Positions 12,563 to 29,240 of a DNA stretch of 32,000 bases are shown one piece after another. The stretch is from assembly GCF_003231495.1 (NCBI RefSeq), contig NZ_PQWO01000009.1, forward strand, positions 60,001 to 92,000. Reading direction: 5' to 3'. The translations under genes and the position numbers were made by a program. The DNA comes from Acaryochloris thomasi RCC1774. GTDB taxonomy: Bacteria; Cyanobacteriota; Cyanobacteriia; Thermosynechococcales; Thermosynechococcaceae. The stretch's first letter is position 1. Every line of letters starts with the position of its first letter. The notes beneath the pieces were generated by a model that saw only the letters and a list, made by a program, of their open reading frames with translations, was not told the DNA's origin and ran no database searches.

Positions 12563-12605
12563 ATAGTCCGTTTTAAAGAGAAAAATAGTCCGCTTCAAAG
12601 AGAAA
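12562..12605 (+). promoter_or_regulatory. Tandem 22-bp direct repeat (AATAGTCCGTTTTAAAGAGAAA / AATAGTCCGCTTCAAAGAGAAA); candidate AraC operator of receptor gene 1
   Basis: Read directly: 20 of 22 positions are identical and the two copies are exactly adjacent. The repeat starts within the araC stop codon and lies 88-131 nt upstream of the receptor ATG. The core GTCCG(T/C)TT-N5-AGAAA recurs at 29344-29382. Confidence 0.5.
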
Positions 12606-12634
12606 CACACGCTCCACGCCCCATAGAATTTAAT

Positions 12635-12655
12635 TGCAAATAATTCTTGTTTGCA
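12635..12655. promoter_or_regulatory. AT-rich inverted repeat TGCAAA-N9-TTTGCA; weak Fur-box-like candidate proximal to receptor gene 1
   Basis: Sequence TGCAAATAATTCTTGTTTGCA followed by TATTATC, 38-58 nt upstream of the ATG at 12693. Similarity to the Fur consensus is only partial. Confidence 0.3.
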
Positions 12656-12692
12656 TATTATCGGTGGATCTGATGGTTGAGTGGTGTGGGAA

Positions 12693-15299
12693 ATGATGGT
12701 TACCAAAACGGTACGACTTGGGCTGTTAGCGATAGGTTGGCTAGGGATGACACCTGTGGCTTGGGCCGAGCAGTCTAATGCAGAAAATTTAGGAAAGACC
12801 AAGCATTTAGCTAATCAGCCTGTAGAAGGACTTGTTGCTGCAGATCAGACCATTAAGACGGGAAAAAGCCTTTCTCAGCAACCCCCAGCTTCTACAGTCA
12901 AAGATTGGATAGCTCAAATTAAAGCATCACAAGTGCAAATTATCAGCGTCAATCTAGAACAAACTGAAGCCGGTTTACAGATGACGCTGGATACAACTGA
13001 CGGGACTTTAGAAACTCCAGCAACAACGGTATCGGAGAACACTCTAGTTGCTGAAATTCCGAATGCAGTTTTATCACTGCCGGAGGAAGAGACGTTTGAG
13101 CAAGTTAACCCAGTGCTGGGGATTGCTCTAGTGAGCGTGACGAGTTTACCGAATGATCAGGTGCGGGTGGCGATTACGGGCACAGACGCTCCGCCTACGG
13201 CTGAAATTACAGCCTCTGCATCGGGTTTAGCCTTTGCCGTTTTGCCAGGAACCGTCAGTACTGAAGGCACTGAAGAAGAGGAGCTTGAGATTACCGTTAC
13301 GGCAGAGCAGAGCGGATCTGAATATTTTGTGCCTGAAGCAGGTGTCACCCGCACTGATACTCCTATTCTCGATACCCCTGCCAGTGTGTTTGTGGTTCCG
13401 CGTCAGGTGTTTGAAGACCAGGGAATCACCAAGTTTTCTGATGCACTGAGAACGACACCCGGTGTATCACAAACGTCAGCGCCTAACGCTAACTTTAACA
13501 ATGTGAATATTCGAGGCTTTGATGTCTCTTCTCCCAGTTTGAGAAATGGCGTCCCTGAAGCCTTTTCGTTCTCTCTGCCCAGAGACTTGAGTAATGTAGA
13601 GCGACTGGAAGTTCTCTCTGGCCCTGCATCTATTGTTGGTGGTCAAATTTCTCCCGGTGGCATCATCAATATCGTCACGAAACAGCCTCTTTCATCCCCT
13701 TTCTATGAGCTATCGGCCAGCTATGGCAGTTTCAATACCTTTGACGGAGGGGTAGATCTTTCCGGTCCTCTCAACAGCGATCAGACATTGAGCTACCGTT
13801 TCAATGCTTCGTACCTGCATTCAGATACACGTGTTGATGTAGATAATGTTGATGTTGATCGTATCTCAATCGCACCTGTACTGAGATGGGATATCAGCGA
13901 CCAAACAAAGCTAACCTTTGAAGGACTGTACCTCAACTCAAAAACTCCTCAGCGAACTGGGTTACCTGCTGTTGGTACTGTTTTAGATAACCCCAACGGC
14001 GAAGTCCCGAGAGATCAGTTTGTGGGAGAACCTGATTTTGACGGTAATGATCGACAAATTATTCAAGTTGGCTATAACTTAGAGCATCAATTGAGCGATA
14101 ACTGGAAGCTGCACCATACATTTCGCTACAATAATTTTCAAATTGAGCAAAGAGAAGCCTTTGCCGATGCGCTACAGGATGACTTGCGAACGTTAGAGCG
14201 ATCTGTATTTTTCGGTCAAGATAATTTTAATAATTTTCAAGCAACTGCCTATATAACAGGTCAGTTTGAGACAGGACCTTTTACCCACAAGCTATCAACG
14301 GGTATTGATTATAGCTTTGAAGAAGACTTTTTTAATTTTACCTTTGGCTCTGTTGATGCTGGAAACATTGACATTTTTGAGCCAGTATTTACCGGTATTG
14401 AGGGGCCGATTCCTGTTGCTGAAATTCAAGGTAGAGATACAAATAGAGGGATAGGACTTTATCTTCAAGATCAGCTAAGCTTATTGGATGATCGCCTCAT
14501 CTTTGTGCTAGGTGGGCGAATTGATTTTATACGTTCTTCCACTGAGAGTTTTAGTGACGGCACCCCGGAAGAATCTCAAAGTGATACAGCTTTTAGCCCC
14601 AGAGTCGGAATTCTTTTCAAGCCCATTGAAAATGTTTCTCTATACGGCAGCTTTAGCCGCTCCTTTCAACAAGTCACGGGCATTAGTGCGACTGGCGAAC
14701 TATTTTCACCCTCTCGCGGAACTCAATACGAAGTTGGTGTCAAAGCGGACTGGCTCGATAAAAGACTCTCGACCACACTTGCTTTTTTCGACATCACTCA
14801 ATCGAATGTTCTGACAACCGATCCTAATAATCCTGCCTTTGAAATTCAAACAGGAGAGCAGCACAGTCGTGGAGTTGAGCTATCGGCCCAGGGAGAAATT
14901 CTACCCAATTGGAACGTGATTGCGTCCTATGCCTACACAGATGCAAAAGTGACGGAAGACAATAATATTCCCGTGGGCAATCGCTTTGCAAATGTGCCGG
15001 AGCACTCTGCTAGCCTATGGACGACTTACACCATACCTAGCGGTAGCTTGGCAGGATTGGGTTTTGGTCTAGGGCTATTCTATGTCGGAGAGCGGCAGGG
15101 AGATTTAGAGAATTCTTTTCAAATACCGAGCTATTTCAGAACCGATGCAGCTATTTACTATAAACGCGATAGATTCAAAATTGGGTTGAATGTGAAAAAT
15201 CTGTTTGACATTGACTATATAGAATCTAGTGACGACATTCTCAGAGTTAACGTCGCTGACCCCCTTACTGTCCAATTGTCAGTTTCTTATGAGTTTTAG
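12693..15299 (+). CDS. TonB-dependent siderophore receptor with an N-terminal AMIN-like extension (module 1)
   Basis: Signal peptide MMVTKTVRLGLLAIGWLGMTPVAWA, so ATG 12693 is preferred over the track's GTG 12681. An extension of about 120 aa is followed by the TonB-box-like ELEITVTAE and plug motifs TDTPILDTPASVFVVPRQV and RGF. A long beta-barrel ends ...LSVSYEF with a terminal Phe. Confidence 0.9.
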   Translation: MMVTKTVRLGLLAIGWLGMTPVAWAEQSNAENLGKTKHLANQPVEGLVAADQTIKTGKSLSQQPPASTVKDWIAQIKASQVQIISVNLEQTEAGLQMTLDTTDGTLETPATTVSENTLVAEIPNAVLSLPEEETFEQVNPVLGIALVSVTSLPNDQVRVAITGTDAPPTAEITASASGLAFAVLPGTVSTEGTEEEELEITVTAEQSGSEYFVPEAGVTRTDTPILDTPASVFVVPRQVFEDQGITKFSDALRTTPGVSQTSAPNANFNNVNIRGFDVSSPSLRNGVPEAFSFSLPRDLSNVERLEVLSGPASIVGGQISPGGIINIVTKQPLSSPFYELSASYGSFNTFDGGVDLSGPLNSDQTLSYRFNASYLHSDTRVDVDNVDVDRISIAPVLRWDISDQTKLTFEGLYLNSKTPQRTGLPAVGTVLDNPNGEVPRDQFVGEPDFDGNDRQIIQVGYNLEHQLSDNWKLHHTFRYNNFQIEQREAFADALQDDLRTLERSVFFGQDNFNNFQATAYITGQFETGPFTHKLSTGIDYSFEEDFFNFTFGSVDAGNIDIFEPVFTGIEGPIPVAEIQGRDTNRGIGLYLQDQLSLLDDRLIFVLGGRIDFIRSSTESFSDGTPEESQSDTAFSPRVGILFKPIENVSLYGSFSRSFQQVTGISATGELFSPSRGTQYEVGVKADWLDKRLSTTLAFFDITQSNVLTTDPNNPAFEIQTGEQHSRGVELSAQGEILPNWNVIASYAYTDAKVTEDNNIPVGNRFANVPEHSASLWTTYTIPSGSLAGLGFGLGLFYVGERQGDLENSFQIPSYFRTDAAIYYKRDRFKIGLNVKNLFDIDYIESSDDILRVNVADPLTVQLSVSYEF

Positions 15300-15368
15300 G
15301 ATTGGGGCTGAGTTCTTAAACAATGACCTAGATCTTTTATATTTCAGTAGAATAAGTTCAGTCAAGTT

Positions 15369-16445
15369 GTGAAAAAAATACAGTTAAAGAAAACAGTACT
15401 CTATGGAAAATCTACGATTAATTGGATTTCAATCCATTGCAATCGCAGTTTCCGAATGTTTCTCTTATTCGCAATGACCGCCTTGATCATCGCTTGTAAT
15501 CACGCCTCAAATCCGGCTGTCACTTCCCCCACTGATTGTCGAACGATTCAACATGCAATGGGAGAAAGCTGTGTTCCTACTACCCCCCAGCGCTTAGTGG
15601 CCCTGAGTTCGCCCACAATGGCAGATGCGATCGCACTAGGCGTACGGCCGATTGGTACAGTTTTACAAGACTTTGATTTTCAAAAAGCTCCGCCCTATCT
15701 AGAAGGACGACTACAGGGCATTGAAATTGTAGGCAAAGAAGAGCAGCCTGACCTAGAAAAAATTCTATCGCTTAAACCCGATCTTATTATTGGCCTGCAA
15801 TATGACTCTGAGCCAGTCTATGACAAACTCTCACAAATTTCTCCAACCGTTTTAGATGATTGGAAGGGCTACCCTTCTTGGAAAGAACACTTTGATTTTG
15901 TGGCTCAAGCTTTAGGTAAAACCGAAGCAGCCCAACAAATATGGTCGCAGTACGATCAACGTATTCAAGAGTTGAGAACAGCCCTTGGTCCAGCTTACTC
16001 GGATCTTGAAATCTCATTTGTGAGGGTCTGCTGCGGCAATTGGGCCACGGATGTCAAAAACTCTTTTAGCGGCATGATTCTTGAAGATGTCGGCCTAAGT
16101 CGTCCCCCTGCTCAGGATATTGAAGTTGAAAATGGACTTGTTTTTCTCTCTGAAGAGGCCCTCACTCAGTTTGATGGCGACATTATTTTTCTGGTTGTCG
16201 ATGCAGATCAAGATTCTGCAGATGCCTTAGAGCAGCTTAAGCAGAAACCCCTTTGGCACAAACTGAAAGCTGTACAGCAAGGGAAAGTCTATCCCGTCAA
16301 TCTTGCAACATGGCGGGGCGGAAATCCCTTAGCTGCTGATGCCGTAATCGATGACCTTTTCAAATATTTGGTAAAAGTTCCAGATTCACAAGGCTCGAAG
16401 TCAGATCACAAAAATACGATGGCCGAGAATGCTCCTACTCGATAA
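15369..16445 (+). CDS. FhuD-like (type-2 periplasmic binding protein) iron-siderophore ABC substrate-binding lipoprotein (module 1)
   Basis: Hydrophobic leader with lipobox MFLLFAMTALIIAC. Family pattern RLVALS...LGV.PIG...KPDLIIG...LWHKLKAVQQGKVYPV. The start is uncertain: GTG 15369 or ATG 15456. Confidence 0.85.
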   Translation: MKKIQLKKTVLYGKSTINWISIHCNRSFRMFLLFAMTALIIACNHASNPAVTSPTDCRTIQHAMGESCVPTTPQRLVALSSPTMADAIALGVRPIGTVLQDFDFQKAPPYLEGRLQGIEIVGKEEQPDLEKILSLKPDLIIGLQYDSEPVYDKLSQISPTVLDDWKGYPSWKEHFDFVAQALGKTEAAQQIWSQYDQRIQELRTALGPAYSDLEISFVRVCCGNWATDVKNSFSGMILEDVGLSRPPAQDIEVENGLVFLSEEALTQFDGDIIFLVVDADQDSADALEQLKQKPLWHKLKAVQQGKVYPVNLATWRGGNPLAADAVIDDLFKYLVKVPDSQGSKSDHKNTMAENAPTR

Positions 16446-16447
16446 AT

Positions 16448-17293
16448 CTACCGCTCCTCCAGCCAGCTCTGTAAATCTGCCAAACTCGTGAAATCTAGCA
16501 GTGCCTCACTCAAATCTTCAAGTTCAGGCAAAGAAAGAGAGGCAAGGTGCGATCGCATTTCTTCCGGCAGCATTTGTCCTAGGCGATAAGTCAACTGGCG
16601 CATCACCACAGATAAAATCCCCTCCTCTTTTCCCTCTGCCTTGGCCTCTCGAATAGCACGAGGTTCCTCTGTTAAATCTAGACCTAACATTGCCTTGACC
16701 TCCGCTCGACTCGCGTTCTTTAGTTTGTACACCATAATTGAAGTCACTATGTCTATTATGTCTCGTCTTTTCTCCAAAGTGAATCCCGCCTGCTCAGTAC
16801 GTGCGATCAGATCCCTCGCAGCTTCAGGCGCTTCATTCTCTTTCACAATCGTCAACACCATTGCCCCTACAGCAATCGGAAGAGAGTCGATCTCTCCCGC
16901 CTCATTCAGATATACGCGATGAACCTGGTTGCCATTGAGCAGCGATCGATGGGGATGAAGCTTACTCTGTTCAGCCGCGCGAGAAGGATAAATGATCACC
17001 GCCTGCCAATCTGAAAAACGAGCGCTGTTGCGGTAAAAGTACAGCGCCGATTCACTAAACAATCGCTCGTAGAGTTCTTCATCCTTTTGCATCTGGACTT
17101 CGCAGAAGAAAACGACACCTGGTTCATCTCCCTCTGGCGGCAGGAACACCCCGTCAATTTCGAACTTGGGTTCCTTGACGGCAACTGAATCGAATCGATA
17201 GCCAGCCGCATTATTCGGTCTTTCCCCCAGCAGATCGAACAGCAGCTCGGGCGATTGCTGAAACAGCTTGTAGAACAGAGGGTCACGCCGCAT
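16448..17293 (-). CDS. Rpn-family recombination-promoting nuclease / putative transposase-like protein (DUF2887-type N-domain plus DUF4351-type C-domain)
   Basis: The N-terminus MRRDPLFYKLFQQSPELLFDLLGERPNNAAGYRFDSVAVKEPKFEIDGVFLPP...VVFFCEVQMQKD matches my memory of the cyanobacterial DUF2887/Rpn-like pattern, with a D...E.Q nuclease-like core. The C-terminal helical half is paralogous to 29512-29952. Its stop is only 2 nt from the convergent stop of the binding-protein gene. Confidence 0.75.
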   Translation of the reverse strand: MRRDPLFYKLFQQSPELLFDLLGERPNNAAGYRFDSVAVKEPKFEIDGVFLPPEGDEPGVVFFCEVQMQKDEELYERLFSESALYFYRNSARFSDWQAVIIYPSRAAEQSKLHPHRSLLNGNQVHRVYLNEAGEIDSLPIAVGAMVLTIVKENEAPEAARDLIARTEQAGFTLEKRRDIIDIVTSIMVYKLKNASRAEVKAMLGLDLTEEPRAIREAKAEGKEEGILSVVMRQLTYRLGQMLPEEMRSHLASLSLPELEDLSEALLDFTSLADLQSWLEER

Positions 17294-17421
17294 TGCACAT
17301 CCATCGAAAATAAGGCTCAGTTTACAGTCCCCGCCTCACGCATAGAAAAACACGACCGTATTTCATAACGTCTCAGAACATCACGGTCCCTAATGCATTC
17401 TCTAAGCGATAAACCACTACC

Positions 17422-18738
17422 GTGCATACCTTCACTCTAATTTGGCTGGGTCAACTGGTCTCTACCATTGGCAGCTATATGACCAGCTTTGCTCTAACGC
17501 TTTGGGCATGGCAGCTTACAGGCTCCGCAACGGCTCTGGCGCTAGTGGGATTCTTTTACGAGTTACCTCAGATTCCGGTTGCCCTCTTTGCGGGCATCAT
17601 TGTGGATCGCTTTAATCGCAAATATCTGATGATTTTGGGGGATGCAATTTCAGCCCTCTCTACCCTAATTCTGCTGCTGCTCCACTTAACCGGACAGCTC
17701 CACCTCTGGCATCTTTACCTGACTTCGGCTGCCATTGGCGGCTTCGGTCAAATTCAGCAGCTGGCCTATTCCACTTCCATAACGACACTGGTTCCGGTCC
17801 AGCACTATACCCGTGCCAACAGCATGAACTCTGTTGTGCATTATGGCTCTATTATTATTGCTCCGGCCGCAGCGGGCCTGCTCTACCCTGTCATTGGTTT
17901 AGCGGGGGTTTTGATGATTGATTTGGCGACCTTTGGCGTTGCGATCGCAACCCTGCTCCTCTCCCACATTCCTCAGCCCCCTCCAGAAAAAACAGGCTCT
18001 GCCAAGCAGACAGGAAAACTCTCTCGACTCTGGCAAGAAACCACATTTGGCATTCGTTATATCTGGCAGCATCCGCACCTACTGCGCTTGCTAATCATTA
18101 CAGCCTTGTTTTGGTTCTTCCATGATCTCGGCAGCGCCATTGATGACCCCATGATTCTTGCTCGTTCCGGCAGCAACGCTCAGGTTTTGGGTGCTATTGG
18201 AACGGCTGCAGGTATCGGGGGCGTCACAGGTGCGATCGTGTTGACTGCTTGGGGCGGCCCTAAACAGCGTATTCATGGACTACTCATTGGTTTTATGGGG
18301 GCAGGACTCGCCAAAACATTTTTTGGACTGGGCCAAAATCTCAAGGTCTGGGTGCCTGCTCAGTTTTTTTCATCCCTTAACTTTCCGCTGTTGGGTAGCT
18401 CAGAAACAGCAATCTGGATGGAGAGCACTACACCTGAGATTCAAGGTCGAGTGTTTGCCGCGAACTCACTGGTGTTGCAAGGAGTAAGCACAATCGCAAC
18501 CCTGATTGCCGGTCCTCTGGCTGAGCGTATTTTTGAACCTGCAGTGCATTCAAAAAAAGTGGCCTGGGTCGTTGAACCAATACTGGGAACTCAACTCGGT
18601 GCAGGCACTGCTCTACTTTATATCCTCACATCTTTGGCACTTGTGTTAGTTGGGGTGGGTGGATATTGCTTACCGCCTTTGTCTCAGGCAAACGATCCAG
18701 CACTGATTGACAGCCAGGAATCGCACGCAGATGAATAG
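17422..18738 (+). CDS. MFS transporter (EntS/MFS_3-like; possible siderophore exporter or importer) (module 1)
   Basis: 438 aa with about 12 TM segments. The N-terminus IWLGQLVSTIGSYMTSFALTLWAWQLTGSATALALVG...IVDRFNRKYLMILGD is paralogous to 24171-25454. GTG start. Confidence 0.85.
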   Translation: MHTFTLIWLGQLVSTIGSYMTSFALTLWAWQLTGSATALALVGFFYELPQIPVALFAGIIVDRFNRKYLMILGDAISALSTLILLLLHLTGQLHLWHLYLTSAAIGGFGQIQQLAYSTSITTLVPVQHYTRANSMNSVVHYGSIIIAPAAAGLLYPVIGLAGVLMIDLATFGVAIATLLLSHIPQPPPEKTGSAKQTGKLSRLWQETTFGIRYIWQHPHLLRLLIITALFWFFHDLGSAIDDPMILARSGSNAQVLGAIGTAAGIGGVTGAIVLTAWGGPKQRIHGLLIGFMGAGLAKTFFGLGQNLKVWVPAQFFSSLNFPLLGSSETAIWMESTTPEIQGRVFAANSLVLQGVSTIATLIAGPLAERIFEPAVHSKKVAWVVEPILGTQLGAGTALLYILTSLALVLVGVGGYCLPPLSQANDPALIDSQESHADE

Positions 18739-18769
18739 CGATCATTCATTTAAGAACGCAGAGTTCTCG

Positions 18770-19687
18770 CTATCTCACTCCCTGTACATTAGTCTCTGCA
18801 AAAGATTGAGGATAGATAAGGGGCAGAAGCCGCTCTAACATTAACCCGATCAAACGAGTGCCGTTGCCCCAGTGCCAAAATGGCTCAATTTCATAGACCT
18901 GTTGAGTCTGCACAGCCTTAAGCTGCCTCCAGGTCGGATGCTGATGAAGCTGCTCAGAGAGCGGTTTATTTTTAGGACTAAAAGATTGCACAAAAATAAT
19001 ATCAGGATCAACCGTCAAAATTCGCTGCAGCGAGAGGTAGATCAGTCCAACTTCTCTGCGCTCAGGCTTTGGCTTTGACCAAGGGAAATTTGTAAATTGC
19101 TGCAGAACACTACCGACCGTCCCCGTATCCGTTTCTACGGGATAGCAGTTCAACCTGCGATTGATGGTTGCACCGCCCATGACTATTACAGTCGGTTGAG
19201 ATTGGTGCTGTAGCAGCCGTTGCATATCTCGAATCTGTTGGGTGAGGGTTGCGATCGCATCCTTCCCCTGTCTCTCTCGCCCCGTCCAACGACCGACCCG
19301 CTGCAGTCTAGCGACAGCGGCATCATAACCCGCTCCTTCCACCAGCAAGAGCGGCGCAATACGGTTGAGTTGCTTATAAAAACGGTGGGGGAAATGCCAG
19401 CCTAAAATCAAATCGGGATGGCTTTGGCGAATAGCTTTCCAGTTTGGAAAAATCCACGATCCGGCGTTCATGAATGATCGAGCGCGATCGCCGTAAAACT
19501 CCGGTCGGTCAGCGACGCCCTGATTAAGATAGCCCACTGGCTCTAGCCCCAGTTCAACCAAGCAATCAAGCCCGGTTGCCGTCAGGCAAACAATCCGTTG
19601 AGCAGGCTGATCTAACCGAATTTCAGCACTAAGGTCATTACTTTCCTGAATTGGAGTCGCTTTAAACGCACTCTTTCCCTTTGTCAT
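18770..19687 (-). CDS. FhuD/BtuF-like type-2 binding-protein fold without any signal peptide (predicted cytoplasmic)
   Basis: Family pattern RIVCLTATGLDCLVELGLEPVGY...HPDLILGW...DPDIIFV...WRQLKAVQTQQVYEI. The preferred start is ATG 19687, which overlaps the stop of the upstream methyltransferase frame as ATGA. Neither this start nor the longer track ORF (to 19783) encodes a hydrophobic leader. Confidence 0.75.
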   Translation of the reverse strand: MTKGKSAFKATPIQESNDLSAEIRLDQPAQRIVCLTATGLDCLVELGLEPVGYLNQGVADRPEFYGDRARSFMNAGSWIFPNWKAIRQSHPDLILGWHFPHRFYKQLNRIAPLLLVEGAGYDAAVARLQRVGRWTGRERQGKDAIATLTQQIRDMQRLLQHQSQPTVIVMGGATINRRLNCYPVETDTGTVGSVLQQFTNFPWSKPKPERREVGLIYLSLQRILTVDPDIIFVQSFSPKNKPLSEQLHQHPTWRQLKAVQTQQVYEIEPFWHWGNGTRLIGLMLERLLPLIYPQSFAETNVQGVR

Positions 19688-20577
19688 ATCGGTTCTGGTC
19701 CCAGTTGCAATCGCACAATTCGGCCTGAGTTTTTGAAGAGCGCCATTGGGAGCGCTGGGAGTAGCTGACTGATTACCCGCCACGTCGTGGGTAAACGCTG
19801 GGGATAGTCGAGAAAATGCTGGAGATAAAATTGTTCTTCTTTCAGAACAAAATTAGGATTCCAGGTTTCCAGCTCGCGGGAGCGATCAATGCCCCATTGA
19901 AACTGAGCTGAGGTTTTAGAAACTGTGTCGTGGCGACGAGTACGATTGGCAACCTTGCGGTTGAGAACATCAAATACAACGTGGGCAAAGCCGAAACGAC
20001 GCTCAAGCTGTTCTAATAACGCTCGGTTGTCTGCTTCGCTGAGGTACATTGAAACCCCTTCATAGATAATCATCACGGGTTGGTTCGGCTGATGATCAAC
20101 TGCATCTATCCAGGCAAAGTCTAAGATAGAAGACGCGATCACAGTGTTGCGATCTCATCCCTCAAACAACTGCCGCCGTAGCTCAATCACCTCGGGAAAG
20201 TCGATATCGTACCAGCGGACTTGGGCTGTCTCTAGGCGCAAATAGCGCGTGCAAAGCCCTGCCCCCAAATTAACAATTATTGCTTCAGGGTGGGTGTCAA
20301 TGAAGGTTTGGACTAGCATATCGATGTGCCAAGCCCGAATCACACAGCCCAACTGAGATGACCATCCTGGCTCGAATTTCGCAAAGTCATAGTCGAGCCG
20401 CTGAGCGATTTCAATCGCCTTTTCATCCTGTAAAATGGCATCAGACTTTTGGCTTTCAGCCGCTCGTGCATAGAGTGTAATGAGTAGCGTTTCAGGTACA
20501 CCCGCAAGCTGCAATGAGATATCAGAAGTGGCTGACATAGGAGCGTCTAGGGATAGAGAACAGGGGGCTGTGATCAC
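19684..20577 (-). pseudogene. Class I SAM-dependent methyltransferase (TcmP / leucine carboxyl methyltransferase-like family) interrupted by a single in-frame TGA at 20155-20157
   Basis: Two track ORFs (20155-20577 and 19684-20142) are in the same frame. My reading across the junction is ...ELRRQLFEG-TGA-DRNTVIASSILDFAWIDAV.... The N-half has the SAM motif IVNLGAGLCTRYLRL and the C-half has IIYEGVSMYLSE. Together they give about 297 codons, the normal length for the family. Confidence 0.75.
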
Positions 20578-20611
20578 ATCAAGTCAAATTCAGGAACGAA
20601 ATTGATGCCAG

Positions 20612-21226
20612 CTATGCTGCAACCGGGGTCAGTGAAAAATATTGGTGATAGTCCCGCACTAGAGCGACCTTGCCATAACGCGGATCAATCTCAATTCCCT
20701 GAATCTCTAGGGAGCGACAGCTTGTGCTACTCGCGATCGGAATGCTGTAAAATTCTGTCTCTAGTGCTTTGAGTGGCAGGCATAACTTAAAGATAGTGGA
20801 CCTATAGGCCGCAGGGATAAACCCCTCACCCCCCATGTTTAAAGCGGGCTGATTATGAAAAGAGAGCTGTCCGGTATTGTTCAGAATTCCGGCAGGCGTC
20901 TCAAACTGCTCACACCAGCGCAGCGCTAGGAACCATTTTGCATCTGCTAGACGGTTAAAAACACGCTCCGATTGAGTTTGGGGTAAGACCTTATATCCTC
21001 CTTCCACGGCCATGATCGAGCCACCTAAAAATCCAAATAAAAGTCCAATCGAGTTACTCATGAAACGGCTATCCATACGCTGCAAAAGAAAACCCTGGAG
21101 AATATGCCTATCCCCCAGGTGAGTTTGACTGTGTTGAGAGGGAACGTCTAAAGTCAAAGAATCAATAGTTTTGTCGTAGGTTTCGTAATTTACCCCTTCG
21201 ACCGATAGGAGTAGAGCTGCCAGCAT
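20612..21226 (-). CDS. Hypothetical protein (no family recognised)
   Basis: 204-codon ORF in the same orientation as the flanking genes and tightly packed with them. The start is uncertain: ATG 21226 overlaps the upstream gene by 37 nt, and internal ATGs lie at 21076 and 21061. One hydrophobic stretch, SIGLLFGFLGGSIMAV. Confidence 0.45.
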   Translation of the reverse strand: MLAALLLSVEGVNYETYDKTIDSLTLDVPSQHSQTHLGDRHILQGFLLQRMDSRFMSNSIGLLFGFLGGSIMAVEGGYKVLPQTQSERVFNRLADAKWFLALRWCEQFETPAGILNNTGQLSFHNQPALNMGGEGFIPAAYRSTIFKLCLPLKALETEFYSIPIASSTSCRSLEIQGIEIDPRYGKVALVRDYHQYFSLTPVAA

Positions 21227-21471
21227 CTTTCAAGTGCCAGGATGAGCTGTAGACGAGGTTGCATTGCTCGTCTTGAAACGCTCCAGACTTGAATGGCAAT
21301 CTCAGGATTATCCACCTGAACCGTTAGCGGTTGATAGGCCCCGCAGTCACAGGGAATATCAAGTTCCTGGAGACGACGATAAATTGCCCATCGGTTTTGA
21401 CCGTTGATTTCAATCGCAGTGCCGATCTTCGAAGCCTGATTTTTAGAGTCCATTTTCTTCCTAATCTTCAT
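21190..21471 (-). CDS. Small Asr1405/Asl0597-family-like protein (cyanobacterial, unknown function)
   Basis: The core RWAIYRRLQELDIPCDCGAYQPLTVQVDNPEIAIQVWSVSRRAMQPRLQLILALERCW matches my memory of the family pattern W.VY.RLQEL.IPC.C...QPL.V......A.QLWSV. The likely start is ATG 21471 or 21453, not 21585. Confidence 0.6.
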   Translation of the reverse strand: MKIRKKMDSKNQASKIGTAIEINGQNRWAIYRRLQELDIPCDCGAYQPLTVQVDNPEIAIQVWSVSRRAMQPRLQLILALERCWQLYSYRSKG

Positions 21472-21809: not shown

Positions 21810-22337
21810 ATGCCAGAAGTTATTGCACAACCCTTTAGTCAAGTTACAGATAATGTCCTGCGGCTTGAATCATCAATCACCGAGCCAGTTTGCGAAGGAA
21901 TGAATGCCCTACTCGCTAGCTTTCAGGCTTTATATCTGCAGTATCAAAAGCATCACTTTGTGGTTGAGGGCGCTGAATTTTATAGTCTGCATGAGTTTTT
22001 TCATGAGAGTGCAGGTGAAGCCAAAGGCTATGTTCATGAACTCGGAGAGCGCCTCAATGGCCTGGGTGGCGTCCCGGCTGCGAGCTTCACGAAGCTCGCA
22101 GAGCTATGCTGCTTTACCCCAGAAGCCGATGACGCTTTTGACTGCCGCACTATGGTGGAACATGATCTAGCGGCTGAGCAGTCTGTAATTGATGTACTGC
22201 GCCGACAGGCATCTCAGGCAGAGAGCTTAGGCGATCGCGCCACTCGTTTTGTCTACGAGAAAATGTTAGTGGAGACAGAAGAGCGGGCCTATCACCTCGC
22301 TCACTTTTTAGCCCCAGATACTCTGGTACAGAAGTAG
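21810..22337 (+). CDS. dps: Dps family protein (DNA-binding ferritin-like, iron storage and oxidative-stress protection)
   Basis: 175 aa. Dps signature region [49 protein letters not shown] and ...[26 protein letters not shown]. Confidence 0.9.
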
Positions 22338-22450
22338 CTTGCTGGTGCGGTGCATTGATCAATATCGTCTGCATCATGCTGGCATCTTCGAAATGAGCTA
22401 CTGCGAGTAGGCCGGACACGCTTCTCTAGCGACTGAAGTTTTACTTATGA

Positions 22451-22486
22451 ATAGAGCCTTGACTGAGTTGAGGCTCTATTTTTGTT
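22451..22486 (+). terminator. Rho-independent terminator downstream of dps
   Basis: Perfect 9-bp stem ATAGAGCCT / AGGCTCTAT (10 bp with the flanking A-T pair), an 11-nt loop, then TTTTGTT. There is no T-run on the opposite strand, so it is unidirectional. Confidence 0.6.
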
Positions 22487-22956
22487 GGCTGATGTTGCTC
22501 ACGATTATAGCCTTATTGATATATACTTGCAATAGTGACAAGCTAAAGAAACTTAGGCTTCTGTTTTTCTTAGACGTCAAAGTCTTTATAGGTAAAGCTT
22601 TCGAGTCGTCTTAGTGATCATAATTTTGGTTTGATCATCATTGACCTGTGCAGATTATTGATATTTTAATTCAACAGATTTTTAATAAATCTATAACTAG
22701 AGCAGCAACAAGTATTTAGAGCCTTTGCCAGCAGAAGGTTTCGGGCACTAACATTGTCTCTTCCTTTTGCTTTATCAATTTCTATTGTTAGTAAGGTCTT
22801 GAGCTGCAGGTCAGTGACAGCGTCCTCAGAGTGCCTTTATCTCCGATGTGGATGCAATAGATATTGATGGTTTTGAGGAATATTTCGCCTTGACAGCATT
22901 CTAGATTGAGTTTTGACTTTTTTCCTTTGCTATTGCTCTCTCATTTGTAAGTATTT

Positions 22957-23787
22957 ATGGTTTTGGCTCTCGATTCCCCTGTCTCTACGCTATCGGTTGA
23001 AGCTAAGCCGAAGCCACAGTTTTGGTCTCGGCCTATTTTTGCACCCGAACAGGGAAGCATACTGGTGCTGGGCGGGGCAATTGTTTCCGGTGCTTCATTG
23101 GCCCAAGCCTGGACATCGGCAACAACGCTGGTTTGTCTCTGTACCTTTTTTGCCCTACAGGTCGAGCATCCGCTGGTGGTTTTGTTGAAGCTCAAGTGCT
23201 GGAAAACTCGATTTGTCTTGTGGGGCGGGCTGTACGGTTTGATTGCGCTTGCCGTTGCATTGTGGCTGTCTTGGTCAACACCAGAGCTGCTGTGGATCTT
23301 TGGGGTTGCGATCGCATCTCTCCTCATCGACCTTGTGGCCGTCACTCGCAAGCAACACAAATCGATTGCCAACGAGATCACAATGTTCGCAGCCATTTGC
23401 TTATCTACGCCCTTAGCCTACGGAGCGACAGTGGGAGCCATTACCCCTGAAGCTATTGGCCTCTGGATCTTGAACTCACTCTTTTTCGCCACTGCGGTGT
23501 TCACGATCAAGTTTCGTAAGGGCAAAGCCGATGTCTGGTCTGGGGTAACGTATCTGGCCGTGGCTGTCGTGATGATTGCTGGACTCTATTTCCTTGGCTG
23601 GTTGAAGATGCTGACCGCTCTCACCTTCGGTATCGCAATTTTGAAGTTTGGTGCGGTGGTCTGCTTCCAGGATTGGTATCGGACCTGTTGGTTTGGTGCG
23701 ATCGCAAGATTTGAGACCTACTTTGCCCTTTCTTACATTTGTCTTGTGGCGCTGACCCTCTTACCCCCACATTTGCCAACGAGTTAG
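22957..23787 (+). CDS. Polytopic membrane protein, YwiC-like family (unknown function)
   Basis: 276 aa with about 8 hydrophobic helices. PEQGSILVLGGAIVSGASLAQAW near the N-terminus and KSIANEITMFAAICLSTPLAYGA mid-protein resemble YwiC-like proteins as I recall them. It is the longest and most hydrophobic of several overlapping ORFs here. Confidence 0.65.
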   Translation: MVLALDSPVSTLSVEAKPKPQFWSRPIFAPEQGSILVLGGAIVSGASLAQAWTSATTLVCLCTFFALQVEHPLVVLLKLKCWKTRFVLWGGLYGLIALAVALWLSWSTPELLWIFGVAIASLLIDLVAVTRKQHKSIANEITMFAAICLSTPLAYGATVGAITPEAIGLWILNSLFFATAVFTIKFRKGKADVWSGVTYLAVAVVMIAGLYFLGWLKMLTALTFGIAILKFGAVVCFQDWYRTCWFGAIARFETYFALSYICLVALTLLPPHLPTS

Positions 23788-24170: not shown

Positions 24171-25454
24171 TTAGCCATGGTCAGGCAAGGTTGTCTCTAC
24201 TGTTCTCAGCCGCCTCACACTGTACCCACCGATCGCAATCAACATTCCGCAGATGGCAAAGATCGAAATCTGTAGTGCCATACCTGCGCCTAATCCAGTG
24301 CCGAAGATTGGTCCAAAGAGTTGGGCTAACGGTCCTCCTGGCTGCATGGCGGGTTCAAAAAATTGGTCGGCGAGGGGACCTGCGATCGCAAACCCTACAG
24401 GACTACTCAACTGTGTCAGCAAAAATCGCGTGGCAAACACCCGTCCCTGCACCTCTGGCTCCACCTTAGACATCCAAATCGCTTGGTTGGCGCTTTCTGG
24501 GAACGGAGAACAGAAGCCTGAAAATAAAGCCGTACCAATCTTCGTTGCATTTCGCTGAGCCAAAGCCAGAATCACAATACCTAGTTTCCATAGGGCGCTA
24601 GCAATCAAGACACTATGAATCCGACGTTTGGCACCACCCCAGATACTCATGGTTACCCCGCCCAAGAGACCACCCATCCCAAAAAAAGCCAGCAGCGTTC
24701 CCCAAACGACAGGATTGTTGTCACTTCGAGCTAAAACCATCGCAGGCAGAATGGCAAAAGTAGCGCTATCAATAAAACTATTGAGGATCAAAAAGCTGAG
24801 AAGGGCCATCAGACTGGGCCGTCGCCAGAGATATTTCAGTCCAAAAGTCAGCGATGTTCTAAATGAGTTTTTTTCCTTTGCTAGGGGGATTGCTTGAGAC
24901 TGGGGAATGCTAACCAGTGCTAAGCTGCATATTGCGATCGCAAAGGTAGAAATATCAATGCAGAGAATACCCGTCAGACCTGTTGCTGCATAGATGGCTC
25001 CTGCCAAAGCTGGGGCCAAAATATAGGTGCCTGACATTTGAACAGAGCCGAGAGCTGTAGCGCGAGCGTAGTGCTGTTTAGGGACAATCAGCGTCAGAGA
25101 GGCAGCGTAAGCCAGTCCTTGGATATAGCCAAATAAGCCGTTAATCGCGCCGGTTATGTAGAGGTGCCACACCTGCAGATTCTGGGTTAAAAACAGGAGC
25201 AGTAGAGCGATCGTAGAGAGTCCGGCGATCAGGTCGCCCAGCAGCATTAGATACTTGCGCGGGTAGCGATCGACCCAGATGCCTGCAAAGGGTGAAACCA
25301 GCAGTCTGGGGACTTGGGTAAACACCAGAATTAGAGAGAGAGGCGTGGCTTGTCCAGTGATTTCCCAAGCCCAAAGCGTGATGGCAAAGTTGGTTAGCTC
25401 GGAGCCAAGTAGGGAGGCAAATTGACCGAGCCAGATAATTAGAAAAGTTCGCAA
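24171..25454 (-). CDS. MFS transporter (EntS/MFS_3-like), paralogue of 17422-18738 (module 2)
   Basis: 427 aa. IWLGQFASLLGSELTNFAITLWAWEITGQATPLSLI...WVDRYPRKYLMLLGD. TTG start at a position equivalent to the GTG start of the paralogue, and no in-frame ATG upstream before the stop. Confidence 0.85.
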   Translation of the reverse strand: MRTFLIIWLGQFASLLGSELTNFAITLWAWEITGQATPLSLILVFTQVPRLLVSPFAGIWVDRYPRKYLMLLGDLIAGLSTIALLLLFLTQNLQVWHLYITGAINGLFGYIQGLAYAASLTLIVPKQHYARATALGSVQMSGTYILAPALAGAIYAATGLTGILCIDISTFAIAICSLALVSIPQSQAIPLAKEKNSFRTSLTFGLKYLWRRPSLMALLSFLILNSFIDSATFAILPAMVLARSDNNPVVWGTLLAFFGMGGLLGGVTMSIWGGAKRRIHSVLIASALWKLGIVILALAQRNATKIGTALFSGFCSPFPESANQAIWMSKVEPEVQGRVFATRFLLTQLSSPVGFAIAGPLADQFFEPAMQPGGPLAQLFGPIFGTGLGAGMALQISIFAICGMLIAIGGYSVRRLRTVETTLPDHG

Positions 25455-25601
25455 TAGTTTGGCTCCTGATCCGATGCTTTTGCATGCACTTAAGACAAGA
25501 TGCTCAACTAGCTTAAATGCAGAGACGGGGGTTTCCTTAGAGATTTTGAATCTAAAACGTATTTTTTTGCGCCCGAAACGCAGTTTTTGGATATCCGTTC
25601 T

Positions 25602-26672
25602 CTACAGAGGGGATAGCATTTGTTGTTTCAGTTCTTCTAAATAAAGTTCGGTGCCGATGGGGCCGGGTAAGCCTAAACAAAGGTAAGCGGGGATGAAGTA
25701 GACGCGTCCGGTTTTGCTGGCTTTGAGAGATTGTGCGATCGCATTTTTCTGCCACATCTGCTTCAAATCTGTGATTTGGCTAGCTTCAAATTCTGTTGTA
25801 CTGCCGGTTGCTTTAGGCGGACTGAAGTTGCTGCCCAACAAAACCATAGAGTCAGCCTCATCCAACTGCGTCAACCCTTCCAGAGAGATCTGCACTCGTG
25901 CATCTTCTTTTTTGTTGTCAAATTCTGGTGGGGAGATTAATTGAAAGCCCAGCTTGCTAACTAGGGAACGACAAAGACCGTGACCAGAATTACCTAAATT
26001 TATTTCTCTAAGATCAGAGGAACTGAGCAAGAGCAGTTTAGGGTGGGTTGCCACTAAAGAGGCAAAACGCTCACGGGCTGTTGTCACACGCCGTTCTGTC
26101 TCCGTTAAAAGTTGTTCTGCTTGCTCAGAACGATCAACGGCTTCAGCAATGGTCTGCAAACTCTCTTCCGTCTCTGACCACTCGAGCAGCACCGTTGGGG
26201 CGACTTTCGATAAAGTCTCATACTGGTCAGTATTACCATCAACCGTGCCTAAAATAAGATCTGGCTTCGCTTTGAGCAAGGCTTCAATAGAGGGCGTGTA
26301 AGCCTGTCCCACATTCATGAGGGGCTGAGTAATGTAGCGTCCTAAGTAGGGAATTTGCTGCTCGGGATTGTCATAGGCTCCCTGATGCACCGTGATGTGG
26401 TCAGCGAAACCGATAGGCTGCACCTTGAGAGCTAATAGAGGTTCTAAGACATAGGGCCCCAGCACTACGATTCGTTGAGGCTGTCCGCATATTTTAGTTT
26501 CGCCTAATTCATGCTGGACGACACGGCAATCTGCAGATGATGCAGCATTGCGGGGGGTATCCTGCTCTGGGGTAGGTTGGCAGGCTGAGATTGAATGTCC
26601 CAGCAAAACCACAAAGATGAGCCATTTCGTTACTGCCAAAACTTTCACAGACCATTCCTTTCTGAGGGACAA
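25602..26672 (-). CDS. FhuD-like iron-siderophore ABC substrate-binding lipoprotein (module 2)
   Basis: Leader MSLRKEWSVKVLAVTKWLIFVVLLGHSISAC with a lipobox. Pattern RIVVLGPYVLEPLLALKVQPIGF...KPDLILG...TGRVYFIP. The start lies 6 nt after the receptor stop. Confidence 0.85.
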   Translation of the reverse strand: MSLRKEWSVKVLAVTKWLIFVVLLGHSISACQPTPEQDTPRNAASSADCRVVQHELGETKICGQPQRIVVLGPYVLEPLLALKVQPIGFADHITVHQGAYDNPEQQIPYLGRYITQPLMNVGQAYTPSIEALLKAKPDLILGTVDGNTDQYETLSKVAPTVLLEWSETEESLQTIAEAVDRSEQAEQLLTETERRVTTARERFASLVATHPKLLLLSSSDLREINLGNSGHGLCRSLVSKLGFQLISPPEFDNKKEDARVQISLEGLTQLDEADSMVLLGSNFSPPKATGSTTEFEASQITDLKQMWQKNAIAQSLKASKTGRVYFIPAYLCLGLPGPIGTELYLEELKQQMLSPL

Positions 26673-26678
26673 CTCACT

Positions 26679-29240
26679 TTAAAAATTGACTGTGACTGAA
26701 CCAATGACCGTAAACGGTTCACCGACTTCTGAACCAAATGTACGACTGTTGTTGCTGCCGACAATGTAATCAACGTCAAAAATGTTTTTAAAGTTGAGGG
26801 CCAGTCGCCAGTTATCACGGCGATAAAACATCGCTGCATTGGCTAGGAAGTAGCTGTCTAGCTCGAAACTATTGGCGAGGTCACCTTCTCGTTCTCCTAA
26901 AAAGTTGAATCCAAGCCCAAACCCTAAGCCCTGTAGATCGCCCGATTGAATCTCATAGGTGCTCCACACACTGCCGCTGTGCTCAGGGATATTGACGAGG
27001 CGATTGCCTTCAGGAATCGTATTATCTGCAGAGACTTCTGCGTCAGTGTAGGCGTAGGAGGCGATCACGTTCCAGCCCGGTAGAATCTCACCTGTAACAT
27101 CAAGCTCGACACCTCGACTGTTTTGGGCACCCGTGGCAACGGATGAAAAGGGATCGAGGGGATCGGGGGTCGCCACATTTCTGCGGCTGATGTCGAAATA
27201 ACTCAAGGTGGCAAAGAGCCGTTCATTCAAAAGAGCCGCCTTTACACCCACCTCAAACCCTTCGCCCCGCTCTGGAGGGAGTAGCTCACCGCTGCTGGTG
27301 GTCTCCGTGTTGGGCGTGAAGGACTGGGAATAGCTGGCAAATAAGGACAGAAATTCGAGGGGCTGGTAAACGATGCCAAAACGCGGGGTCACAGCATCAT
27401 CATTTTGGTCCGCTTCAGAGCCAACGGGATCAGAAGCAGTCGGCCCATTCGTGATGTTCTGATCGACGGTGTCATAACGAACACCAGCGACCAAGATTAG
27501 GTTGTCCAATACCTTGATTTGATCCTGGAGAAAAAGGCCTAAGCGATTGGTTTGTACCTTTTCATTGAAGGAAATCGGTAGGCTGCCACTATCAATCGGT
27601 GCGAGACCAAAGACCGGGTTGAAAATGTCTAAGAAAGAGGGTGAGGCGAAGTCAAAGCGAGAAAGATTTTGCTCATCGGTTCGATTCAAATCAACTCCCA
27701 CCAATAGCTTATGGTCAATGGGACCAGTGGCAAACGCTCCGACCACGCTGGTTTGGAGAGAAAAATTGGTTGCGTCGATGTCTGCGCTTCCAGGGAACCG
27801 CATGACGAGACCTGTGGCTTCATCGAACGCGAGAGGCAGCACGGCCGTATTCAATAGATCTCGTCTTGAATATTCAAAAGCATTCCGTATCTCCCACCGA
27901 TCGTTAAACTGATGCTCAAAACTATAGCCCACCCGAAACAGGGTGCTGTTTACGAAGTTTTCGGGTTCAACAATGATGCTGCTAAAGGGAACATCGGCTA
28001 CGCCATTGCCGATGGCCGGCAAGCCAATATCAAAGGGTTGTGAATCAGTCGCATACTCAGCTTTTAGGGTGAGATTGGTGCGATCGCTAATTCGCCAGGA
28101 TAAGACAGGGGCAACGAGGAAGCGTTCAATGTCTACATCAGAGTCTATGAAGTCACTGTCGCGAGAGTAAGACACGTTGAGCCGATACAGTAAATCTTTT
28201 TTTGGGGTCAAGGGGCCGGTTAGATCGATTTGAGGCTGCACGAAGCCTCGGTTGCCCAACTCCAGACCGATCTCATAGGCCGGTTGATCCAGCGGCTGCT
28301 CCGTGACGATATTGATGATGCCTCCTGGCTGTAGCTCTCCATACAAAATGGAGGCCGGTCCCTTAAGCACTTCAACTCGTTCTACATTCCCAAGGGCTGG
28401 GTTGGCCCCTGTGAAGCCGCCAAATTCTCTGAATCCATCTCGCAGAGTGGGAGCATCAAACCCCCGAACGTTGAAGTCTATGCTGACCCCGCCAAAGGTA
28501 TCCCCAAAAGTGACACCACTCACGTTCCTGAGCGCTTCATCAATACGGGTGACCTGCTGATCTTCTAAGACCTGCTTCGGCACGACTTGAATGGATGTCG
28601 GTGTATCCAAAATAGGCGTATCGGTGCGCGTTGTAGGACTTACCTCCGGGACCGCGTAGCCCTCTGGGCCTCTCTCTGCAGTCACCGTGAGTTCTAATTC
28701 TTCCTCTTCTGAAGCAACTGGTGAAACTGCATCCACCGCAAACACCAATCCCGATATTTCACTCTGAATCGTGACTGTTGGGGGGCCTTCTATCCCCACA
28801 ATCTCAACCTGTACCTGATCTCCTGACAGAGGTATGACGCTAACCTGAGAGATACCTTCGACGGGATTATCTTGCTGATATTCTGGACCGCCCGGCAAAG
28901 CCAGCACTGCGTTGGGAATAATGGCCGTAAGTCGGTTCCCCTCAGTTGTAGCGGCGGGAATCGCTAGGTCATCCGCTGTAGTTTCTAGAACAATTGAGAG
29001 CCCCTGCTCCGTCGGGTTAATCTGTATGCCCGTCACCTGAATTTGCGTTGCTTCGATCTGGGCCAGCCATTCAGTGACGCTAGCGGCGGGCTGACGGTCT
29101 TCCGGCTCCAAAATTTCTAAAAGTTCAGCCAATTCGTCAGTTGTCGCAGGCTTCTCGGTGGCCAAAACCGATTGGGTTGCTCCCAAACCTGCCAGCGCGA
29201 TTGCCCACAGCGGCAAAAACTTGCCAAACCTTTGTTTCAT
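26679..29240 (-). CDS. TonB-dependent siderophore receptor with an N-terminal AMIN-like extension (module 2)
   Basis: Signal peptide MKQRFGKFLPLWAIALAGLGATQSVLA, an extension of about 120 aa, the TonB-box-like ELELTVTAE, the plug motif TDTPILDTPTSIQVVPKQV, and a barrel ending ...GSVTVNF. Confidence 0.9.
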   Translation of the reverse strand: MKQRFGKFLPLWAIALAGLGATQSVLATEKPATTDELAELLEILEPEDRQPAASVTEWLAQIEATQIQVTGIQINPTEQGLSIVLETTADDLAIPAATTEGNRLTAIIPNAVLALPGGPEYQQDNPVEGISQVSVIPLSGDQVQVEIVGIEGPPTVTIQSEISGLVFAVDAVSPVASEEEELELTVTAERGPEGYAVPEVSPTTRTDTPILDTPTSIQVVPKQVLEDQQVTRIDEALRNVSGVTFGDTFGGVSIDFNVRGFDAPTLRDGFREFGGFTGANPALGNVERVEVLKGPASILYGELQPGGIINIVTEQPLDQPAYEIGLELGNRGFVQPQIDLTGPLTPKKDLLYRLNVSYSRDSDFIDSDVDIERFLVAPVLSWRISDRTNLTLKAEYATDSQPFDIGLPAIGNGVADVPFSSIIVEPENFVNSTLFRVGYSFEHQFNDRWEIRNAFEYSRRDLLNTAVLPLAFDEATGLVMRFPGSADIDATNFSLQTSVVGAFATGPIDHKLLVGVDLNRTDEQNLSRFDFASPSFLDIFNPVFGLAPIDSGSLPISFNEKVQTNRLGLFLQDQIKVLDNLILVAGVRYDTVDQNITNGPTASDPVGSEADQNDDAVTPRFGIVYQPLEFLSLFASYSQSFTPNTETTSSGELLPPERGEGFEVGVKAALLNERLFATLSYFDISRRNVATPDPLDPFSSVATGAQNSRGVELDVTGEILPGWNVIASYAYTDAEVSADNTIPEGNRLVNIPEHSGSVWSTYEIQSGDLQGLGFGLGFNFLGEREGDLANSFELDSYFLANAAMFYRRDNWRLALNFKNIFDVDYIVGSNNSRTFGSEVGEPFTVIGSVTVNF

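Follow-up and report, generated by a model that had tools for sequence, protein, structure and literature searches.

Signal-peptide-less siderophore-binding-protein homologues of cyanobacteria and an apparently degenerate copy in Acaryochloris thomasi RCC1774

What does a siderophore-binding protein that lacks an export signal do beside a methyltransferase gene in a cyanobacterium? The question is raised by positions 18770–21471, on the minus strand, of a 32,000-nucleotide (nt) stretch of Acaryochloris thomasi RCC1774 (contig NZ_PQWO01000009.1, positions 60,001–92,000; hereafter the window, for which we found database proteins of 100% identity). Profile searches of the whole window place the region in an iron-acquisition island. 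A first-pass annotation had read it as one cassette of four tightly spaced, co-transcribed genes, and had suggested that an imported siderophore is captured and methylated in the cytoplasm. The four open reading frames (ORFs) do exist at about the positions given there, but the sequences of relatives indicate that the region is probably not one four-gene operon; it probably comprises a stand-alone Asr1405 gene and a separate unit that encodes a 149-residue protein (p149), a methyltransferase, and the binding protein. We consider the best explanation overall, at a probability of about 0.55, to be that the binding protein belongs to a cytoplasmic handler of a citrate-type siderophore that is degenerate in A. 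thomasi. The features of the region are as follows.

21190..21453, minus strand: Asr1405/Asl0597-family small protein gene (87 residues, ATG at 21453; GenBank C1752_03451)
21084..21119, minus strand: terminator-like hairpin (stem-loop at 21119–21094, then a T-rich run) between the Asr1405 stop and the start of the 149-residue gene
20612..21061, minus strand: p149, a conserved cyanobacterial 149-residue protein; the true extent of an ORF annotated with 204 codons
20155..20538, minus strand: N-terminal part of the methyltransferase (127 codons), ending at an in-frame TGA at 20155–20157 (GenBank C1752_03449)
19684..20154, minus strand: C-terminal part of the methyltransferase, in the same frame and well conserved (GenBank C1752_03448)
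18770..19687, minus strand: signal-peptide-less homologue (305 residues, PF01497) of class III (FhuD/YfiY/HtsA/FecB-like) siderophore-binding proteins
18746..18769, minus strand: relic of a C-terminal module (Cext), reading RELCVLK-stop directly after the TAG of the binding protein, where relatives read GL(R/Q)QRELC...

The binding protein matched Peripla_BP_2 (PF01497) with 67.9 bits (cut-off 27.5), and profile comparison with the PDB returned HtsA first (1e-21), followed by YfiY, YfmC, and FecB. The predicted structure of its orthologue P0126 (predicted local distance difference test score [pLDDT] 89.9) had the class III fold of two lobes joined by a long helix, with target-normalised template-modelling (TM) scores of 0.8–0.87 to YfiY, HtsA, and FecB. 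The best matches were Fe-schizokinen-bound YfiY (E 3e-20) and FecB in complex with ferric citrate (TM 0.87); the ligand of HtsA is staphyloferrin A. Citrate and alpha-hydroxycarboxylate chemistry is typical of the cyanobacterial siderophores schizokinen and synechobactins. The annotated likeness to FhuD is borne out, as is the absence of a leader. The protein resembles the YfiY, HtsA, FecB, and YfmC receptors of ATP-binding cassette (ABC) importers (class III, cluster A) in family, in best profile and fold matches, and in architecture. It differs from them in having no signal peptide or lipobox and no adjoining permease or ATPase genes, it is only 15–24% identical to the solved proteins, and the genes of its clade are flanked by those for a methyltransferase or a protein that we call p155, by Cext, and by a VTT-domain protein, in iron-stress neighbourhoods.

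Inspection of the window sequence revealed no hydrophobic leader either in the binding protein or in the in-frame sequence upstream of it, which is hydrophilic throughout back to the nearest stop codon. Two other Peripla_BP_2 genes in the window carry lipobox leaders. We collected cyanobacterial orthologues (39–69% identical) from about 90 database clusters and about 40 genome loci, and about 40 of them likewise had no leader: their N-termini are short and hydrophilic, they start 10–30 residues before the first beta-strand, and there is no coding room upstream. On these upstream in-frame sequences, we rejected a start-codon artefact as the reason. The next-nearest relatives, which are 28–35% identical and come from Paenibacillus, Dehalococcoidia, Acidimicrobiia, and Woeseiaceae, all have a hydrophobic leader ending in Cys (e.g., LLAAC-G), and FecCD-FecCD-ATPase genes lie directly downstream of them, which is not so for the window gene or for most cyanobacterial orthologues. 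An exhaustive search of the family showed that 80 of the 93 full-length representatives have at least 20 extra N-terminal residues (median 39). On these comparisons, the absence of a signal peptide is a conserved trait of the whole cyanobacterial clade, whose ancestors had both a lipoprotein signal peptide and adjacent permease and ATPase genes, all of them since lost. Because it has neither a lipoprotein signal nor adjoining permease and ATPase genes, the binding protein would have to act in the cytoplasm, and we conclude that it probably works inside the cell.

Three further features of the wider family emerged from these searches. P0247, P0253, and P0343 (29–35% identical) were the only other non-cyanobacterial representatives that looked leaderless, and export may have been lost more than once in the family. 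Exported relatives from Acidimicrobiia and other metagenome-assembled genomes (MAGs; L071–L079, L084, and L086) carry long His/Asp/Glu-rich repeats, such as HEDEDDDDHADHDHEDE, upstream of position 10001, in the stretch that separates the lipoprotein signal from the binding domain, and these repeats may be metal-scavenging tethers. In Dehalococcoidia, we observed tandem-duplicated binding proteins of 600–700 residues.

Eleven of the binding-protein orthologues end in Cext, a conserved module of about 50 residues with the consensus GLRQRELC...GLSTHAY.QQ.TGW.L..E.YYPP; P0122, P0125, P0126, P0128, P0130, and P0131 are among the carriers. In Leptolyngbya JSC-1 (L016, 10857–11003), Cext is a separate 57-codon ORF between the genes for the binding protein and a VTT/DedA-type membrane protein, and in two other loci (L023, 7450–8301; L026, 8136–8996) it is the N-terminus of the VTT protein itself. 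In both of these, a basic cluster follows Cext and precedes the first membrane helix, which suggests that the fused Cext faces the cytoplasm. The VTT gene lies downstream of the binding-protein gene in 11 loci. This pattern of fusions leads us to argue that the two partners, the binding protein and the VTT protein, work jointly from the cytoplasmic side. AlphaFold2 predicted Cext to form three short helices and a beta-hairpin (pLDDT 85–92) in a winged-helix-like topology; in Pfam and the PDB, no significant match was found, to DNA-binding families or others, and the weak matches were to Sigma70_r4_2 and NikA.

To place the gene in context, we took 42 cyanobacterial loci and clustered every ORF lying up to 6 kb from the orthologue. 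The neighbours included genes for a class I aldolase (18 loci), flavodoxin (isiB; 11), an isiC-like hydrolase (10), and IsiA (4), as well as TonB-dependent receptors (13) and AraC regulators (8). Two alternative partners occupy the position directly upstream of the binding protein: the methyltransferase in six loci and p155 in about 18. The following arrangements were seen (> and <, direction of transcription).

Type A, about 20 loci: isiC-like hydrolase < flavodoxin isiB < (IsiA) < class I aldolase <, divergent p155 > binding protein (with or without Cext) > VTT-domain protein
Type B, L014–L017, L019, and L051: lipoprotein binding protein < TonB receptor < AraC <, divergent methyltransferase > binding protein > (Cext) > (VTT)
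Thermostichus, L048: IsiA > flavodoxin > methyltransferase > IsiA > binding protein > hydrolase, with spacers of 9–89 nt
Acaryochloris-like, L008: p155 < aldolase > p149 > methyltransferase > ... binding protein with Cext
Acaryochloris-like, L009: the order of L008 minus the methyltransferase
Acaryochloris-like, L035: p149 < methyltransferase < aldolase < p155 > binding protein
A. marina: aldolase > p149 > methyltransferase only

The methyltransferase gene is directly adjacent to the binding-protein gene, on the same strand, in the window and in L014, L015, L016, L017, and L019; in L008, L035, L048, and L051 it also lies within 6 kb, so it is found within that distance in 10 of the 42 loci. 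The lineages in which the methyltransferase gene is followed by the binding-protein gene are Leptolyngbya JSC-1, Egbenema, Nodularia, a Leptolyngbyaceae MAG, and a further MAG (L015). The pairing noticed in the first-pass annotation therefore recurs, but it is the minority arrangement. The commoner partner is p155, the Asr1405 gene takes no part, and p149 is near the binding-protein gene in only 4 of the 42 loci. The cyanobacterial isiA-isiB-(isiC) clusters are one of the closest known settings: in relatives, the binding-protein gene lies beside or inside clusters of genes for IsiA/CP43-like proteins, flavodoxin, and an alpha/beta-hydrolase, and the association of flavodoxin with the hydrolase has been noted before (PMC3610870). 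The window has neither isiA nor isiB, and its binding-protein gene lies instead between two AraC–TonB receptor–lipoprotein–MFS modules, together with a dpsA-ywiC pair.

Two small Cys-containing families were observed in these neighbourhoods. The unannotated p155 family (about 155 residues; e.g., L087:5027–5494 and L012:1738–2214) has conserved Cys residues (e.g., GLACNC) and no significant match in Pfam, and its genes lie on the same strand as the leaderless binding-protein gene and divergent from the class I aldolase gene in about 18 loci. A word-based, and hence insensitive, search for a copy in A. thomasi gave five matches, none of them from Acaryochloris genomes. A Cys-rich protein of about 100 residues (p101; ...CGHCAYYTGC...C..C...C), whose sole Pfam match was a weak one to DUF2701, is encoded next to the isiC-like hydrolase and flavodoxin genes in about nine loci, including L030, L034, L038, L041, L042, and L087.

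From the matched ligands, the neighbours, and the distribution of Cext, we infer the ligand, the partners, and the direction of hand-over. Under iron limitation, the binding protein would bind an imported citrate or alpha-hydroxycarboxylate siderophore (schizokinen-like), in its ferric or iron-free form, or ferric citrate, in the cytoplasm. The ligand would then be handed to the VTT membrane protein via Cext, and/or to a modifying enzyme such as the methyltransferase.

The copy of this module in A. thomasi carries two lesions. The first is at the 3' end of the binding-protein gene, where the TAG stop codon aligns to a CAG (Gln) codon of the relatives. The 13 nt past the TAG still align to the start of Cext (CGAGAACTCTGCG, versus CGAGAGCTGTGCG of L008), and homology beyond the relic ends at the 3' end of a convergent MFS gene (18738). 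We take this alignment to mean that the module of about 50 residues has been deleted from the window protein. The binding-protein ORF itself is full length and keeps every invariant residue; it departs from the consensus at 7 of 82 near-invariant positions, the second-highest count among 29 sequences.

The second lesion is in the methyltransferase gene. The N-terminal fragment of its product matched LCM (PF04072) with 43.3 bits (cut-off 22.3), and the C-terminal fragment alone scored 17.6 bits, below the threshold. The whole retains the S-adenosylmethionine (SAM) motifs of its intact orthologues (a glycine-rich GAGLCTR and an acidic D-x-D-F-P). The assignment to the TcmP/LCMT type thus holds in that the protein belongs to the class I SAM-methyltransferase fold family that includes LCMT1, TcmP, and the putative O-methyltransferases of the TIGR00027 type, a broad family at large. 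The differences are that the fragments score 33.8 and 25.7 bits against TIGR00027, under its cut-off of 93.55, that there is no usable sequence match in the PDB, and that the gene that had been annotated as continuous from 20577 to 19684 is interrupted by an in-frame TGA and is entered in GenBank as two coding sequences. The TGA aligns to Ser in seven of nine intact orthologues, which are called at 270–305 residues without interruption, and it lies inside a variable loop. Across both halves, the whole frame is 64–65% identical to the intact orthologues of A. marina and L008 (290 and 281 residues), with no frameshift, and 59–62% identical to the orthologues of four Leptolyngbya-type loci. The alignments suggest that the TGA arose recently by nonsense mutation (plausibly TCA to TGA), that it is a sequencing error, or that it is read through. 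The overlap of the methyltransferase stop codon with the binding-protein start codon (ATGA, 19684–19687) is real, but with the methyltransferase gene interrupted, the translational coupling proposed from it would be broken.

Within the window, we found no match to the VTT protein, p155, flavodoxin, Cext, or the aldolase. With the nonsense codon, the deleted Cext, and the absence of VTT, p155, and aldolase genes from the window, we regard the A. thomasi module as degenerate. Only the reading frames of p149 and the bare binding protein are intact, and at most these two would still be functional.

Redefinition of the remaining genes changed the anatomy of the supposed operon. We identified 195 homologues of p149, with lengths of 128–163 residues among the 120 listed. 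They cover only the C-terminal 61–73% of the 204-codon ORF (20612–21226), and their N-termini all align at M56 of that ORF, which corresponds to the ATG at 21061; GenBank also calls the protein at 149 residues. In the near-identical relative L092, a 46-nt insertion disrupts the supposed N-terminal extension and the DNA 5' of ATG 21061 has diverged, whereas the coding part shows change at third positions. The homologue extents, the alignment of starts at M56, and the L092 insertion led us to reject the 204-codon ORF as a real gene. The 37-nt overlap with the Asr1405 gene that had been reported is therefore a gap of 128 nt between the Asr1405 stop (21190) and the p149 start. On the other side, the methyltransferase starts at a conserved ATG at 20538, the GTG region 5' of it being unconserved, and the gap between p149 and the methyltransferase is 73 nt rather than 34.

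AlphaFold2 predicted p149 to be a PAS-like alpha/beta domain (pLDDT 85). Foldseek returned only PAS, LOV, TraJ, and VqmA-type ligand-binding domains, at a probability of about 1 and modest E-values (3e-3 to 3e-2), with a target-normalised TM score of 0.6–0.65 to the PAS domain of TraJ; no sequence match was found in Pfam (PAS models included), NCBIfam, or the PDB. The family has two invariant cysteines, and the window copy departs at only 1 of 44 near-invariant positions. In most cyanobacteria the contexts of p149 are unrelated, and its linkage to the module is limited to the Acaryochloris group.

The assignment of the first gene to the Asr1405/Asl0597 family is secure (NF045598, 95.6 bits versus a cut-off of 35, E 1.4e-27; PF28237 is recorded for the L092 orthologue). 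Its product has 93 residues if it starts at ATG 21471. In the literature, Asr1405 is a hypothetical protein tied to nif regions and nothing more. Among the 42 loci, only the window has this gene within 6 kb of the binding-protein gene (the nearest other copy is about 6 kb upstream in L039), and it adjoins p149 and the methyltransferase only in L092. A terminator scan detected an 11-pair stem at 21094–21119, and the same hairpin was seen in an RNA fold. It is kept nearly base for base in L092, where the sole change in the stem improves pairing, and the intergenic DNA that flanks it, with the 46-nt insertion, has diverged. The 128-nt gap as a whole folds no better than shuffled sequences (z = -0.75), and the local hairpin alone is notable. 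These comparisons place the Asr1405 gene outside the module, as a stand-alone unit with its own terminator-like hairpin.

The island around the cassette is organised as follows.

7048–11328, minus strand: ABC ATPase, ferritin-like protein, GDT1, and two FecCD permeases
11555–18738: AraC, TonB-dependent receptor with an AMIN domain, lipoprotein binding protein, DUF2887/Rpn-like gene, and EntS-like MFS transporter
18770–21471, minus strand: the cassette in question
21810–23787: dpsA and ywiC
24171–31045: a second, mirrored set of MFS, lipoprotein binding protein, receptor, and AraC

The sets at 11555–18738 and 24171–31045 are paralogous modules, mirror images about the central dpsA/ywiC/cassette region, and each consists of AraC, a TonB-dependent receptor with an N-terminal AMIN domain, a lipoprotein Peripla_BP_2, and an EntS-like MFS transporter. 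The dpsA gene is the cyanobacterial DpsA equivalog. Its pairing with a gene for a YwiC-like membrane protein is common to the window and L092, and L013, L030, and L087 also have a YwiC-like gene in the vicinity of the leaderless binding-protein gene; YwiC may belong to the same iron-stress neighbourhood as the leaderless binding protein. A gene of the DUF2887/Rpn family (recombination-promoting nuclease/putative transposase) at 16448–17293 and a shorter homologous ORF at 29512–29952 flank both iron-uptake modules, and they may mark the rearrangement by which the binding-protein gene lost its C-terminal module and the VTT gene that followed it. At the edge of the island, two overlapping ORFs (6035–6514 and 6448–6888), of which the first has a DUF4096 IS4/IS5 transposase N-terminal domain, look like a frameshifted or programmed-frameshift insertion sequence. 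A scan of the whole window against Rfam gave zero matches, and a scan for sigma-70 promoters found sites no more numerous than expected by chance.

Several observations weigh against a cytoplasmic siderophore handler that has decayed in A. thomasi. In L013 and L020, the in-frame stretches upstream of the binding protein are moderately hydrophobic, and on these two sequences a rare exported isoform is conceivable. A scan for Fur boxes with an E. coli-type consensus found six positions with at least 13 of 19 matches, compared with 5.5 in shuffled sequences, and none was near the cassette. Among the model strains with iron transcriptomes, we found none with an orthologue. The TGA might be an error of the assembly, which is an Illumina draft at 20x (PMC6002478), or might be read through; the L092 contig ends at methyltransferase codon 123, five codons short of the TGA position. 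We took the 80 best-matching methyltransferase relatives on metagenome contigs, and a leaderless binding protein of this kind adjoins none of them; these loci are mostly distant (33–52% identical), and the reciprocal test has little power for the cyanobacterial orthologues. Finally, many orthologues naturally have no Cext, and some have no adjoining VTT gene, so the bare window protein may be fully functional alone.

The most serious rivals are that the module is dead and that it is a sensor. According to the first, which we consider unlikely, the methyltransferase and binding-protein genes are non-functional rearrangement debris beside the MFS and the transposase-like Rpn/DUF2887 genes. The nonsense codon, the loss of Cext and of the VTT gene, the DUF2887/Rpn-family gene nearby with a second fragment near 29527–29949, and the number of near-invariant positions at which the binding protein departs would all fit this explanation. 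However, the binding-protein ORF is full length with its invariant residues intact, a form without Cext is natural in many orthologues, the two methyltransferase halves remain in one frame at 59–65% identity to intact orthologues, so that any inactivation must be recent, and p149 is fully conserved.

The second rival has a precedent. Btr (with YbbB), an AraC regulator of Bacillus subtilis, uses a fused FeuA-like domain, and hence the same fold, to recognise a siderophore in the cytoplasm (PMC3333878). By analogy, the binding protein could sense a siderophore and control transcription of the AraC/TonB-receptor cluster, through Cext as a winged helix or through the neighbouring AraC. The type B pair is divergent from an AraC gene, the window protein has a weak match to the NCBIfam model of Btr, and both the predicted fold of Cext and its weak matches to Sigma70_r4_2 and NikA are compatible with DNA binding. 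We nevertheless regard this role as rather improbable. The Btr match is 16.8 bits against a cut-off of 900; the binding protein carries no fused AraC or other recognised DNA-binding domain; and Cext, which is unclassified, matches no DNA-binding family significantly in Pfam or the PDB, is missing from many orthologues and from the window protein, and, in L023 and L026, forms the start of a membrane protein.

The original proposal is weakly supported and in our judgement still more doubtful. It holds that the cassette is functional and co-transcribed, that the binding protein captures a siderophore in the cytoplasm after import, and that the methyltransferase methylates this siderophore so that it can be released, recycled, or detoxified. 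The ATGA overlap speaks for it, as do the adjacency of the pair in six loci from several lineages and the presence of both genes inside the isiA-isiB operon of Thermostichus. The characterised LCM-family members LCMT1 and TcmP form carboxyl methyl esters, a chemistry that would fit the likeness of the binding protein to receptors for carboxylate siderophores. Against these points stand the in-frame stop codon, the separation of the Asr1405 gene by a conserved terminator-like hairpin and its lack of co-conservation, the roughly 32 of 42 loci that have no methyltransferase gene within 6 kb, the roughly 18 that have p155 directly upstream, and the absence of a leaderless binding-protein neighbour from all 80 methyltransferase relatives. 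We judge it very improbable that the binding protein is, despite appearances, an exported one (by a wrongly called start, a non-classical route, or hitch-hiking) that serves the FecCD/ATPase importer at 7048–11328. Its PF01497 membership, the two FecCD genes and ABC ATPase gene in the window, and the moderately hydrophobic stretches in two other loci might suggest such a role, but its own upstream sequence is hydrophilic and closed by a stop, about 40 orthologues agree, two lipobox binding proteins already lie next to the TonB-dependent receptors of the window, and Cext is found elsewhere on the VTT protein, at an N-terminus that is positively charged and presumably cytoplasmic.

The cytoplasmic handling of a citrate-type siderophore thus remains the explanation that we prefer, and its most far-reaching version is that the leaderless binding protein, Cext, and the VTT/DedA protein form a new binding-protein-assisted membrane system that works from the cytoplasmic face. 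We offer this only tentatively, as a long shot. Such a system might export or recycle iron-free siderophore; alternatively, in iron-starved cells, it might move an iron chelate across a membrane (thylakoid or plasma). The methyltransferase or p155 would be an accessory factor that processes the ligand. It would resemble TRAP/TTT secondary transporters in the genetic coupling of a binding-protein homologue to a non-ABC membrane protein (here of the DedA/VTT type), with a shared module found on either partner. In TRAP/TTT systems, however, the binding protein is extracytoplasmic, whereas here it is leaderless and the shared module is on the presumed cytoplasmic N-terminus of the VTT protein.

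The first-pass annotation knew of no described pathway that pairs such a protein with a methyltransferase, and in the literature we found no account of that pairing, of the module, of a link between DedA proteins and siderophores, or of a stand-alone leaderless siderophore-binding protein tied to isiAB/aldolase genes, to VTT/DedA, and to a methyltransferase or p155. The novelty is limited to the combination, which we did not find described: every domain family is known, and cytoplasmic re-use of the fold is already known from Btr (PMC3333878).

The partly pseudogenised copy in RCC1774 makes this strain a poor experimental system, and intact versions are available in Leptolyngbya JSC-1, Egbenema, and Thermostichus. 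To our knowledge, the steps by which cyanobacteria handle siderophores after uptake, namely iron release, recycling, and routing to the iron-hungry photosynthetic apparatus, are largely unknown. The clade of leaderless binding proteins is a concrete, testable candidate for this missing intracellular step, and if it does act there, it would add to the cases in which the fold of a periplasmic binding protein serves inside the cell, here without a fused regulator.

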